Shown here: one piece after another, positions 4,186 to 59,660 of the stretch
Position numbering within the stretch: the first letter of the stretch is position 1
Layout of the letters: every line of letters begins with the position of its first letter
Assembly: GCF_044324875.1 (NCBI RefSeq)
Contig: NZ_CP172185.1
Direction: 5' to 3' (one strand)
Source: Escherichia coli
GTDB taxonomy: Bacteria > Pseudomonadota > Gammaproteobacteria > Enterobacterales > Enterobacteriaceae
Length of the DNA stretch: 64,000 nt
Position numbers and translations under genes: made by a program
The notes under the pieces: generated by a model
Told to the model about the DNA's origin: nothing
Seen by the model: only the letters and a program-made list of their open reading frames with translations
Database searches by the model: none

Positions 4186-4941
<756 letters not shown>

Positions 4942-4987
4942 TTTTTACCGTTGCATCATGTCGCCCAATATGATGCTTGCTCGTACC

Positions 4988-5021
4988 AGGCCCCTGCAAT
5001 TTCAACAGGGGCCTTTTTTTA
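4988..5021 (+). terminator. Rho-independent terminator after cutC
   Basis: Stem AGGCCCCTG / CAGGGGCCT followed by a T7 run. Confidence 0.6.
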
Positions 5022-42292: not shown

Positions 42293-42634
42293 ATGATGAA
42301 AAAAAGTATTCTGGCGTTTCTGTTACTCACCAGTTCTGCAGCGGCGCTGGCGGCACCGCAGGTGATTACCGTCAGCCGTTTTGAAGTGGGTAAAGACAAA
42401 TGGGCGTTTAATCGCGAAGAGGTGATGCTGACTTGCCGACCGGGTAATGCTTTGTATGTCATCAACCCAAGTACCCTCGTGCAGTATCCTTTAAACGATA
42501 TCGCACAAAAGGAAGTTACCAGTGGGAAGACTAAAGCCCAGCCCATTTCGGTGATTCAGATTGATGATCCTAACAATCGCGGCGAAAAAATGAGTCTGGC
42601 ACCGTTTATAGAACGAGCTGAAAAACTCTGTTAA
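42293..42634 (+). CDS. yebY: YebY (DUF2511 periplasmic protein)
   Basis: 113-aa ORF with signal peptide [22 protein letters not shown]. Confidence 0.8.
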
Positions 42635-42667
42635 TTACCTAAAATAACCTTTTGATTTCCAATAAAA

Positions 42668-42706
42668 AAACCGCCTCAGTTCTTTCACCAGAACGGGCGG
42701 TTTTTA
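42668..42706. terminator. Hairpin terminator after yebY, probably bidirectional (also ends RyeA)
   Basis: A-run, CCGCCTCAGTTC...GAACGGGCGG imperfect stem, T-run. Confidence 0.5.
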
Positions 42707-42792
42707 ACATTTAAGCTGATGACCACCGCGCTTTTTATTGACCATTTTGCACGCAAACTGGAAAACCTGGCGTCGTCATCTATTCTTAAAGG

Positions 42793-42896
42793 GCAAGGCA
42801 ACTAAGCCTGCATTAATGCCAACTTTTAGCGCACGGCTCTCTCCCAAGAGCCATTTCCCTGGACCGAATACAGGAATCGTGTTCGGTCTCTTTTTA
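42793..42896 (+). ncRNA. sdsR: sRNA SdsR (RyeB), RpoS-dependent Hfq-binding sRNA
   Basis: GCAAGGCAACTAAGCCTGCATTAATGCCAACTTTTAGCGCACGGC... ending in terminator hairpin ACCGAATACAGGAATCGTGTTCGGTCTCTTTTT; matches my memory of SdsR and its yebY-pphA location; ends approximate. Confidence 0.6.
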
Positions 42897-43029
42897 TCTG
42901 TTAAAAGCCAGAAGCATTCCCTTCGCTGACTTTATAGTCAACCATAACACACACTCTACTGTCTGAGTCCAGCGTTTTTTAACATTCTTGTTAAGATTAT
43001 GTGATCTTTAGCGCGGGAGGAAAATATTG

Positions 43030-43686
43030 ATGAAACAGCCTGCGCCCGTTTATCAGAGAATTGCGGGTCATCAATGGCGACATATCTGGCTTTCAGGCGA
43101 TATACACGGTTGTCTTGAGCAGTTGCGCCGCAAATTATGGCATTGTGGTTTTGATCCGTGGCGAGATTTACTTATCTCAGTGGGAGACGTTATCGATCGT
43201 GGGCCGCAAAGTTTACGTTGCCTGCAGTTACTGGAACAACATTGGGTTCGTGCGGTAAGAGGCAATCATGAACAGATGGCGATGGATGCGCTGGCATCCC
43301 AGCAGATGTCTTTATGGTTGATGAATGGCGGCGACTGGTTTATTGCGCTGGCAGATAATCAACAGAAACAAGCGAAAACGACGCTGGAAAAATGTCAGCA
43401 TTTGCCCTTTATTCTTGAAGTACACAGTCGCACCGGCAAACATGTTATTGCTCATGCCGATTATCCAGATGATGTTTATGAATGGCAAAAGGACGTTGAT
43501 TTGCATCAGGTCTTGTGGAGCCGCTCGCGATTAGGTGAACGCCAAAAAGGGCAGGGAATTACAGGTGCTGATCATTTCTGGTTTGGTCATACACCGTTGC
43601 GCCATCGCGTGGATATTGGCAACCTGCATTATATTGATACAGGTGCTGTCTTTGGGGGCGAACTGACTGTTGTGCAATTGCAATAA
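43030..43686 (+). CDS. pphA: Serine/threonine protein phosphatase 1 (PrpA/PphA)
   Basis: ORF 43027..43686; ATG at 43030 gives 218 aa; metallophosphatase motifs GDIHG, GDVIDRG, GNHE. Confidence 0.85.
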   Translation: MKQPAPVYQRIAGHQWRHIWLSGDIHGCLEQLRRKLWHCGFDPWRDLLISVGDVIDRGPQSLRCLQLLEQHWVRAVRGNHEQMAMDALASQQMSLWLMNGGDWFIALADNQQKQAKTTLEKCQHLPFILEVHSRTGKHVIAHADYPDDVYEWQKDVDLHQVLWSRSRLGERQKGQGITGADHFWFGHTPLRHRVDIGNLHYIDTGAVFGGELTVVQLQ

Positions 43687-53422: not shown

Positions 53423-54304
53423 ATGATGCGAATCGCGCTCTTCCTGCTAACGAACCTGGCCGTAATGGTCGTTTTCGGGCTGGTACTGAGCCTGACAGGG
53501 ATACAGTCGAGCAGCGTTCAGGGGCTGATGATCATGGCCTTGCTGTTCGGTTTTGGTGGTTCCTTCGTTTCGCTTCTGATGTCCAAATGGATGGCATTAC
53601 GATCTGTTGGCGGGGAAGTGATCGAGCAACCGCGTAACGAAAGGGAACGTTGGCTGGTCAATACTGTAGCAACCCAGGCTCGTCAGGCGGGGATCGCTAT
53701 GCCGCAAGTGGCTATCTACCATGCGCCGGACATCAACGCTTTTGCAACCGGTGCGCGCCGTGATGCCTCTCTGGTTGCTGTCAGCACCGGTTTGCTGCAG
53801 AACATGAGCCCGGATGAAGCCGAGGCGGTAATTGCTCACGAAATCAGCCACATCGCCAATGGTGATATGGTCACCATGACGCTGATTCAGGGCGTGGTGA
53901 ACACCTTCGTTATCTTTATTTCCCGTATTCTGGCGCAGCTTGCCGCGGGTTTTATGGGCGGAAATCGTGATGAAGGTGAAGAGAGCAACGGCAACCCGCT
54001 GATCTACTTTGCGGTTGCAACGGTTCTGGAACTGGTGTTTGGTATTCTGGCGAGCATTATCACCATGTGGTTCTCGCGTCATCGTGAATTCCACGCCGAT
54101 GCGGGTTCAGCAAAACTGGTTGGTCGCGAGAAAATGATTGCTGCATTGCAGCGCCTGAAAACCAGCTATGAACCGCAAGAAGCAACCAGCATGATGGCTT
54201 TCTGCATTAACGGTAAGTCGAAATCGCTCAGTGAGTTGTTCATGACTCACCCGCCGCTGGATAAACGTATTGAAGCTCTGCGTACGGGTGAATACCTGAA
54301 GTAA
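53423..54304 (+). CDS. htpX: Membrane zinc metalloprotease HtpX
   Basis: 293-aa ORF with HEISH zinc-binding motif ([11 protein letters not shown]). Confidence 0.9.
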
Positions 54305-54354: not shown

Positions 54355-55070
54355 CACAGAAAACCCCCAGCTAGGCTGGGGGTTCCGGAAAGCTTTCAGC
54401 TTTGAGCCAGTTATTAAAACCCCTTTTGATTTGTTAAAACACCTTGCGGTCTGGCAACTGCAAGTGTCAAACAAGTGTCAAACAAGAAATCAAAAGGGGG
54501 TCCCAATGGGGAACGAAAAGAGCTTAGCGCACACCCGATGGAACTGTAAATATCACATAGTATTTGCGCCAAAATACCGAAGACAGGTGTTCTACAGAGA
54601 GAAGCGTAGAGCAATAGGCTGTATTTTGAGAAAGCTGTGTGAGTGGAAAAGTGTACGGATTCTGGAAGCTGAATGCTGTGCAGATCATATCCATATGCTT
54701 GTGGAGATCCCGCCCAAAATGAGCGTATCAGGCTTTATGGGATATCTGAAAGGGAAAAGCAGTCTGATGCTTTACGAGCAGTTTGGTGATTTGAAATTCA
54801 AATACAGGAACAGGGAGTTCTGGTGCAGAGGGTATTACGTCGATACGGTGGGTAAGAACACGGCGAAGATACAGGATTACATAAAGCACCAGCTTGAAGA
54901 GGATAAAATGGGAGAGCAGTTATCGATTCCCTATCCGGGCAGCCCGTTTACGGGCCGTAAGTAACGAAGTTGGATGCAAATGTCAGATCGTGTGCGCCTG
55001 TTAGGGCGCGGCTGGTAAGAGAGCCTTATAGGCGCATTTGAAAAACCTCCGGCTATGCCGGAGGATATTT
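54355..55070 (+). mobile_element. IS200 insertion sequence (about 710 bp); ends approximate
   Basis: Left-end perfect hairpin CCCCCAGC-TAG-GCTGGGGG (54364-54382), tnpA ORF matching IS200 TnpA, right-end hairpin CCTCCGGC-TAT-GCCGGAGG (55047-55065); size matches IS200. Confidence 0.8.
54506..54964 (+). CDS. tnpA: IS200 transposase TnpA (Y1 HuH)
   Basis: 152 aa from ATG at 54506: MGNEKSLAHTRWNCKYHIVFAPKYRRQVFY... with HIHMLVEIPP HuH motif; ORF track extends upstream through the leader (54350). Confidence 0.9.
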   Translation: MGNEKSLAHTRWNCKYHIVFAPKYRRQVFYREKRRAIGCILRKLCEWKSVRILEAECCADHIHMLVEIPPKMSVSGFMGYLKGKSSLMLYEQFGDLKFKYRNREFWCRGYYVDTVGKNTAKIQDYIKHQLEEDKMGEQLSIPYPGSPFTGRK

Positions 55071-58460: not shown

Positions 58461-59129
58461 TCCTTCCTCAATCTTGAGTAACCCCGTCGTTGAAGGGTTA
58501 CTCAATTCATCCTGATTATACGCACTGTCATGGTGCAACTGCTTCAAATTAAAACTCTGGTCTGACTTCAAATAATTATCATATTATTTATTTGCGTAAC
58601 GGGATATCAGAAAAAGATATTTAGCCCATTAATTTATTAGGATGTTTACATCGGATTTGTGATTAAGCGTGGTATTATTTATTAGCGAAACGTTTCTCTC
58701 TTGATTTTTTTGCGCATTTATCAATTTTTCTTATTTTAAATTTACAATACCTTTGGCGATTGACTTCTCTTTGGGGTGATCTATAGCCGTTAACTGACTG
58801 TTTTATGAGAAAAAGTGATATAACTTTTTATTCATTGCATAGCAGAAAATGTGATATTGCACGCACTATGTAATAACTTCTCCCACTGGCCTGGAACAAC
58901 TGAACTTATTGAACTATGTTAGAAAATACGTCAGTTTAAGTATCTGCCTGAACTGGCAAGGTTAAGCACAATGATATATCGGCGCGTATTCCGTTGCATA
59001 AGTGTGCAAAAAAAGTGGAAGACGTATCGAGATTTGTGCGTCTGATCGAGACATGTTTAAAAATGGCTTGCCATAATTAACGTTGTATGTGATAACAGAT
59101 TTCGGGTTAAACGAGGTACAGTTCTGTTT

Positions 59130-59273
59130 ATGTGTGGCATTTTCAGTAAAGAAGTCCTGAGTAAACACGTTGACGTTGAATACCGCTTCTCTGCCGAGCC
59201 TTATATTGGTGCCTCATGCAGTAATGTGTCAGTTTTATCTATGTTATGCCTGCGGGCGAAGAAAACAATCTAA
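59130..59273 (+). CDS. yobF: Small protein YobF
   Basis: Not in the ORF track; 47-aa [50 protein letters not shown] read from the sequence, immediately upstream of cspC. Confidence 0.8.
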
Positions 59274-59285
59274 GGAATTTTTCAA

Positions 59286-59495
59286 ATGGCAAAGATTAAA
59301 GGTCAGGTTAAGTGGTTCAACGAGTCTAAAGGTTTTGGCTTCATTACTCCGGCTGATGGCAGCAAAGACGTGTTCGTACACTTCTCTGCTATCCAGGGTA
59401 ATGGCTTCAAAACTCTGGCTGAAGGTCAGAACGTTGAGTTCGAAATTCAGGACGGTCAGAAAGGTCCGGCAGCTGTTAACGTAACAGCTATCTGA
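59286..59495 (+). CDS. cspC: Cold-shock-domain protein CspC
   Basis: 69-aa ORF with RNP motifs KGFGFI and VFVHF. Confidence 0.95.
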
Positions 59496-59541
59496 TCGAA
59501 TCCACTGATCTGAAGTGTGAATACGCTTCAATCTCGCTATA

Positions 59542-59568
59542 AAGCCTCGTCGAATGCGAGGCTTTTTA
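59542..59568 (+). terminator. Rho-independent terminator after cspC
   Basis: AAGCCTCG-TCGAATG-CGAGGCTT followed by a T-run. Confidence 0.55.
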
Positions 59569-59660
59569 CTTTGCTTTATCTTCGCTCCAGTCGTTCGGAT
59601 ATTTGCCCGCCGCGTGATTCGCGTTACACTTGCGGCCTTTAGTGTCCTGCCGGAGTTGTC

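Follow-up and report, generated by a model that had tools for sequence, protein, structure and literature searches.

An sdsR/ryeA antisense small RNA locus between yebY and pphA in an Escherichia coli genome, and its conservation across Enterobacterales

The small RNAs SdsR (RyeB) and RyeA (SraC) have been known since 2001, and in Escherichia coli K-12 the promoters, ends, targets and mechanism of the pair have already been mapped. In this strain, sdsR is transcribed by the sigma-S holoenzyme and ryeA by the sigma-70 holoenzyme, RyeA being a sigma-70-dependent transcript of the exponential phase whose abundance is reciprocal to that of SdsR, and the mRNA of the neighboring gene pphA is made mainly by read-through of the sdsR terminator (PMC6610125). 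The hallmarks of a sigma-S promoter are a -13 C, a 16-nt spacer and an A/T-rich discriminator (Frohlich et al. 2012, PMC3333887), and sraC, which is less conserved than sdsR, occurs in roughly half of the enterobacteria (PMC3333887). Overexpressed SdsR arrests or kills K-12 cells and RyeA rescues them, as reported by Choi et al. 2018 and summarized in PMC8610362. The pair has been labelled a type VIII toxin-antitoxin system by some authors and reviews (PMC8610362), whereas PMC3333887 regards SraC as dispensable for the control of SdsR.

The window considered here, the whole 64,000-nt stretch of E. coli DNA that was analysed, carries between yebY and pphA a locus which, judged by its sequence, is almost certainly the E. 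coli sdsR/ryeA pair. The feature is already known and curated, the allele is an ordinary E. coli one with nothing new about it, and no sequence evidence was found against this reading. At the sequence level, the architecture consists of two convergent promoters, a complete antisense overlap and two terminators (Table 1).

Location of the locus and its identity with K-12

The spacer between the yebY stop codon and the pphA ATG measures 395 bp (42635-43029). A sequence-only reading of this DNA had put it at 390 bp, and had recognized within it, at 42665-42940, SdsR on the plus strand overlapped by RyeA on the minus strand. Both checks which that reading had proposed were run. Scanned against Rfam at the gathering threshold, the whole window gave matches to both families: RF00111 (SdsR_RyeB, gathering score 38) at 42796-42895 (+) with 114.4 bits (E 1.8e-21, model positions 1-100 of 100), and RF00101 (SraC_RyeA, gathering score 37) at 42755-42899 (-) with 175.1 bits (E 2.9e-40, model positions 1-145 of 145). 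The alignment with K-12 ryeA and ryeB was gapless from yebY through pphA (1394 nt, 25 substitutions), and both genes transferred, sdsR to 42792-42895 (+) and ryeA to 42933 to 42662 (-). In the curated K-12 MG1655 record, the two genes lie between pphA and yebY, ryeA at 1923066-1923337 (+, 272 nt) and sdsR at 1923104-1923207 (-, 104 nt).

The SdsR sequence is 100% identical to K-12 sdsR (b4433) over all 104 nt, and it is placed directly 3' of yebY on the same strand (yebY ends at 42634, SdsR starts at 42793). RyeA differs from its K-12 counterpart by three substitutions, at 42919 (+15), 42728 (+206) and 42713 (+221), all of them outside the SdsR overlap. With full-length Rfam matches on both strands and the K-12 transfer, the antisense pair of the sequence-only reading is borne out, far beyond chance, together with its strands, order, length and terminators. 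RyeA does run across SdsR on the minus strand, enclosing it and terminating beside yebY. The plus-strand SdsR of about 104 nt with a strong terminator hairpin also stands, its start being refined to the mapped 42793. The interval first given was right to within a few bases, with the RyeA ends now at 42933 and 42662/42664, and only the spacer length had to be corrected.

Over the segment 42600-43060, many complete E. coli chromosomes are 100% identical to the window, and a match was found in 5425 of 5426 E. coli genomes. In that search, the match covered under 80% of the query in 237 genomes, two places were found in some genomes, and one place was on a plasmid; these partial, double and plasmid matches suggest that the locus may occasionally be interrupted or duplicated. 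E. coli 118UI, the sole PGAP genome checked, is 100% identical over the segment, and its RefSeq/PGAP record lists no feature between yebY and pphA. For annotation use, records of the 118UI type should gain the sRNA pair, and the 63-aa open reading frame of the spacer should stay uncalled.

Elsewhere in the window, the Rfam scan returned a full-length match to the MicL sRNA at 4713-5020 (+; 362 bits, E 2.7e-109), which is the known sigma-E-dependent sRNA encoded within cutC. A full-length match to the STnc490 Hfq-binding RNA at 54362-54496 (+; 126 bits) lies 58 nt 3' of a 293-aa ORF (53423-54304), which corresponds to htpX by K-12 synteny and length; the match has an 11-nt insertion relative to the model, resembling a local duplication (AACAAGUGUCA). 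Additionally, a match to the "cspA thermoregulator" (59110-59570, +, 139 bits) extends over yobF (59130-59273) and cspC (59286-59495), and is the mRNA of a paralogous cold-shock protein, not cspA.

Table 1. Features of the yebY-pphA region, in window coordinates
Feature	Position	Strand	Basis and details
yebY, upstream flanking gene	42293..42634	+	ORF list; Pfam DUF2511, E 6.7e-44; K-12 annotation
Bidirectional Rho-independent terminator, yebY/RyeA	42664..42706	both	stem CCGCC 42671-42675 / GGCGG 42697-42701
RyeA (SraC)	42662..42933	-	272 nt, start 42933; transfer of K-12 ryeA (b4432), RF00101
63-aa TTG ORF	42738..42929	+	ORF list; chance open frame, not a gene
sdsR -35 element TGGAAA	42759..42764	+	TGG invariant in 109/109; 16-nt spacer to -10 box
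sdsR sigma-S promoter, -13 C (42780) and -10 box TATTCT (42781-42786)	42780..42786	+	published mutagenesis primer; conservation
SdsR (RyeB)	42793..42895	+	RF00111, K-12 identity; start G42793, 3' ends 42892-42894
SdsR target-pairing region, nt 20-43	42812..42835	+	conserved, single-stranded; G26 = 42818, nt 31 = 42823, C38 = 42830
SdsR terminator	42861..42895	+	terminator scan, fold; 11-bp stem-loop 42861-42889, U-run 42891-42895
ryeA sigma-70 promoter, extended -10 TGTTATGGT (42949 to 42941) and -35-like TGGACT (42971 to 42966)	42941..42971	-	K-12 identity; mutagenesis primer
pphA (phosphoprotein phosphatase 1)	43030..43686	+	ORF list; Metallophos, E 8e-15; K-12 annotation

SdsR, its promoter and its conservation

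A scan of species-representative genomes with an SdsR core pattern gave 120 loci, nearly all of them in Enterobacterales. The conservation profile was drawn from the 109 sequences with sufficient flank, and the other counts were made over 113-115 loci. The stretch 42827-42855 was set by the search pattern, to which the invariance of 42827-42840 and 42846-42855 is due, while the flanks are unbiased. An exact SdsR core was also met on contigs labelled Chryseobacterium sp. (L085) and Flavobacterium psychrophilum MAG (L086); the downstream flank of the latter resembles Kosakonia and Phytobacter loci (L093, L112), and both are probably contaminated or mis-binned assemblies.

Among the 109 sequences, identity to the window was 0.91-1.00 over 42807-42896 and 0.88-0.89 in the two promoter blocks, dropping to 0.2-0.45 directly past the SdsR U-run and just outside the block. 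The conserved block is delimited on one side by the -35 element of sdsR and on the other by the U-run of SdsR. The placement of both promoters was taken from published mutagenesis primers and not from a generic sigma-70 promoter scan, which detected neither the sdsR nor the ryeA promoter; both are atypical, the former being of the sigma-S type and the latter an extended -10 promoter with a 19-nt spacer. The TATTCT hexamer is the one swapped for an XhoI site in a K-12 sdsR promoter mutant (primer PM_SdsRR, PMC6610125), and it is intact in the window. C42780, T42781, A42782 and T42786 are invariant in 109/109 sequences, and the discriminator is A/T-rich (TAA at 42787-42789), so that the -13 C, the -10 box, the 16-nt spacer and the discriminator all agree with the sigma-S description of PMC3333887.

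The mapped K-12 start lies 1 nt downstream of the older annotation, at G42793 in the window, and the 3' ends fall at +100 to +102 (Choi et al. 2019, PMC6610125). This revised start is supported by conservation, since G42793 is kept in 107/109 sequences while 42792 is variable. The mapped K-12 5' and 3' ends coincide with predicted hairpins and U-runs in the window. The RNA is predicted to fold into three hairpins (-34.8 kcal/mol, z -4.05), its terminator hairpin scoring -15.8 kcal/mol (z -3.7) and being followed by a short and interrupted U-run, CUUUUUA. The target-pairing region is unpaired or weakly paired in the predicted fold, and its columns 42816-42826, which lie beyond the search pattern, are identical in at least 108/109 sequences. 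It contains functional positions known from Salmonella, namely G26, an RNase E site at nt 31 and C38 (PMC5137417), and processed SdsR 5' ends have been mapped at +31, +32 and +34 in K-12 (PMC6610125).

Base pairing in the fold was followed through 49 distinct sequences of SdsR. Within the terminator helix, 100% of cells pair and three of the pairs are changed on both sides, and over all helices 90.9% of cells are paired, versus 21-45% in slid controls. The 5' hairpin reaches 65%, its variable-length loop being misaligned by MAFFT; by eye, and not as a formal test, its stem shows the compensatory pairs GGC/GCC, GGT/ACC and GAC/GTC. Helix 2 is invariant, partly forced by the search pattern, and is uninformative on covariation.

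These data bear on the 63-aa ORF, which the sequence-only reading had explained as non-coding RNA. It could be asked whether this frame, or a shorter one from the ATG at 42816, encodes a small protein, SdsR then possibly being a dual-function RNA, given that no species examined has a stop in this frame across the SdsR core and that the ATG (42816-42818) is conserved in 108/109 sequences. The frame is open, however, merely where the nucleotides themselves are invariant, and the changes seen in the terminator compensate one another so as to keep the RNA paired. Its N- and C-terminal ends vary, the stop-to-stop length across species ranging from 27 to 122 aa, and the 12 nt preceding the 42738 and 42816 starts show no Shine-Dalgarno motif. 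A Pfam search of the ORF gave no match. Identity by codon position in its frame is 0.97/0.96/0.98 and 0.95/0.95/0.87, with 0.66/0.70/0.69 in the N-terminal part, the third positions being as conserved as the first and second, unlike yebY, whose 0.78/0.84/0.44 in the same loci is a coding signature. The chance that a protein is made from this frame is, in our judgment, practically negligible, and the non-coding explanation holds. The coding potential of a minus-strand 38-aa ORF was rejected along with that of the 63-aa ORF, on the lack of a Pfam match, the variable ends and the absence of codon periodicity compared with yebY.

The same profile speaks to a second possibility, that the conserved element is a cis-acting leader in the 5' UTR of pphA and not an independent sRNA. 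Read-through from the sdsR promoter does supply pphA mRNA in K-12 (PMC6610125), and the short, interrupted U-run of the SdsR terminator would be in keeping with it. Yet a pphA homologue lies downstream of SdsR in 10/114 species loci, while SdsR and its promoter are near-invariant in all, and a yebY homologue lies upstream in 106/113; SdsR is therefore more than a leader of pphA. In K-12, moreover, SdsR accumulates as a separate RNA of roughly 100 nt, whose 3' ends are set by the terminator and which acts in trans via Hfq, and RNA-seq of a K-12 sdsR promoter mutant found more than 100 genes affected (PMC6610125). A pphA leader is thus a very improbable account, and we retain SdsR as an independent small RNA.

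RyeA and the variable antisense promoter

RyeA is antisense to all of SdsR (42793-42895) and to the sdsR promoter, and it ends at the hairpin adjoining yebY. Three starts of RyeA are known in K-12, the most downstream of which (42933 in the window) is the mature 5' end, and the K-12 3' ends at +261 to +270 correspond to 42673 to 42664 (PMC6610125). The ryeA promoter, start and terminator sequences are identical to those of K-12. The -35-like TGGACT lies 19 nt upstream of the -10 box, and TATGGT, the hexamer that gave way to an XhoI site when the ryeA promoter of K-12 was mutated (primer PM_RyeAF, PMC6610125), is intact at 42946 to 42941 (-). At the other end, the A-run at 42664-42670 is the RyeA U-run on the minus strand, and the T-run at 42702-42706 is the U-run of the yebY mRNA. 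This yebY-side hairpin (about 42666-42705) folds with -20.6 kcal/mol on the minus strand and -19.8 on the plus strand (z -5.0 and -6.9, respectively), and its stem is kept in relatives with differing inner sequences.

RF00101 has 145 positions, about 100 of which complement SdsR, and the remainder covers the conserved sdsR promoter. Since most of the model is thus SdsR in reverse complement together with the sdsR promoter, a match alone is not evidence of a ryeA gene. RF00101 matches at full length, with 127-169 bits, in loci of Yersinia (L009), Serratia (L019), Dickeya (L039), Hafnia (L025) and Brenneria (L036), five loci in which no recognizable antisense promoter was found; the match was accordingly rejected as proof of RyeA. 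The assignment of the predicted RyeA in this window rests on base-for-base agreement with the promoter, start and terminator mapped in K-12, and in any genome a Rfam SraC_RyeA match by itself does not establish RyeA.

The antisense -10 box was counted over 115 loci with two patterns, TGnTATGGT and TG[GA]TATAA[CG], against shuffle controls. The former occurs in 26/115 loci (0.5 expected from shuffles) and the latter in 25/115 (0.7 expected), while the longer pattern TGGAY-N17-21-TGnTATGGT is present in 23/115 versus an expected 0.005. A recognizable extended -10 box is thus present in 51/115 species loci, and neither motif in the other 64. Across species, the RyeA-only segments are at background identity and are poorly conserved beyond close relatives. 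Given that the RyeA-specific sequence is poorly conserved and the antisense -10 box is present in 51/115 loci, RyeA is of less general importance than SdsR, and PMC3333887 argues likewise.

It may be proposed from this that RyeA, although truly transcribed, is a lineage-specific fine-tuner or a by-product of antisense transcription and not a dedicated antitoxin, and that the toxin-antitoxin label is overstated. Conservation does not extend past SdsR and its promoter, leaving the RyeA-only segments at background, and two types of -10 box share the loci that have one. SdsR changes about 1.5-fold without SraC, which is not essential for its control (PMC3333887), and the toxicity of SdsR was shown by ectopic overexpression (PMC8610362). 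Against this, -10 mutants of ryeA in K-12 shift the expression of SdsR and pphA, and the transcriptional interference was reproduced in vitro (PMC6610125); overexpression of RyeA relieves SdsR-induced death (PMC8610362); and the extended -10 box stands at a conserved distance in those 51 species, far from the 0.5-0.7 expected per motif. We regard the fine-tuner proposal as possible but rather doubtful, and keep to RyeA as a regulator of SdsR.

The two -10 types are distributed unevenly. That of E. coli (TGnTATGGT with an upstream TGGAC) is common to Citrobacter, Enterobacter and Leclercia, while E. albertii (L005) and Salmonella (L116) carry the other type, TGTGATATAAC. Because E. coli shares its -10 type with Citrobacter and not with E. 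albertii, the region downstream of SdsR departs from the species tree.

A further element was observed in the relatives, between 30 and 75 nt 3' of the SdsR terminator and before the antisense promoter (for example in L031, L019, L017, L053 and L116). A unit of about 10-11 nt built on the core CGAAW is repeated there 2-4 times in tandem, as in GTCCGAAAATGTCCGAAATTTGTCCGAATTCTAATATTCGGTCTTT, and a small hairpin and a T-run close the array. Two or more units are present in 40/115 species loci, including Yersinia, Serratia, Dickeya, Salmonella, Citrobacter and Enterobacter, and none were found in the E. coli window over 42896-42940. We found no description of this repeat element in the SdsR/RyeA literature examined. 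When folded as RNA, the array gave no clear structure on either strand (z -1.3 to -2.0), and since this folding is not significant, the array may act at the DNA level. One could speculate that the array is a protein-binding site or a back-up terminator, and that the E. coli locus derives from the ancestral arrangement by shortening, loss of the array having enabled read-through into pphA; we consider this unlikely. If it were true, loss of the array would also shorten the RyeA 5' end.

Proposed working of the locus and comparison with known systems

The elements of the locus, their identity with K-12 and their conservation were found here, and the account of expression, Hfq binding, targets, decay, interference and read-through that may be fitted to them is carried over from K-12 and Salmonella. 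The sigma-S promoter would give rise to SdsR, an Hfq-binding sRNA of the stationary phase with a length of about 102-104 nt. By analogy, its conserved single-stranded region would base-pair with and repress many mRNAs, among them tolC, yhcB and mutS in E. coli and ompD, crp and stpA in Salmonella, and the RNA would bind Hfq at two sites. A cut by RNase E at nt 31 (42823), as in Salmonella, may release a form of about 70 nt with its own set of targets.

On the opposite strand, the sigma-70 extended -10 promoter (TGTTATGGT) would drive the 272-nt RyeA across SdsR and the sdsR promoter, as it does in K-12. From the behavior of K-12 and Salmonella, RyeA is expected to keep SdsR low in exponential growth in two ways. 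The paired RNAs would be subject to decay by RNase III, and convergent transcription from ryeA would interfere with the sdsR promoter, and thereby with pphA. Transcription from sdsR would partly pass the SdsR terminator, as in K-12, supplying pphA mRNA.

Compared with relatives, the antisense -10 box of E. coli lies 45 nt from SdsR, about 20-40 nt closer than the 63-85 nt of Citrobacter, Enterobacter and Salmonella, which is consistent with the SraC size differences in PMC3333887. Set beside K-12 itself, SdsR/RyeB (RF00111, b4433) has the same sequence, position, sigma-S promoter, three-hairpin fold and terminator, with no difference detected, and RyeA/SraC (RF00101, b4432) has the same strand, 272-nt span, promoter, start and terminator, the three substitutions being the difference. 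Type I toxin-antitoxin systems such as hok/sok likewise employ an antisense RNA of the same locus, the antitoxin RNA neutralizing the toxin transcript by base pairing and then RNase III cleavage; the type I toxin, however, is a translated peptide, whereas the plus-strand RNA here is non-coding and represses other mRNAs. A pair from Campylobacter described in PMC8687705 follows the same logic of a trans-acting sRNA held in check by an antisense RNA via RNase III, although its sequences and organism are unrelated. In type VIII, for which sdsR-ryeA is the founding locus, an RNA toxin is neutralized by a fully complementary antisense RNA (PMC8610362). The present locus has the corresponding structure, namely non-coding RNAs on opposite strands with full complementarity by their coordinates, and by analogy with K-12 it would operate as a member of that type.
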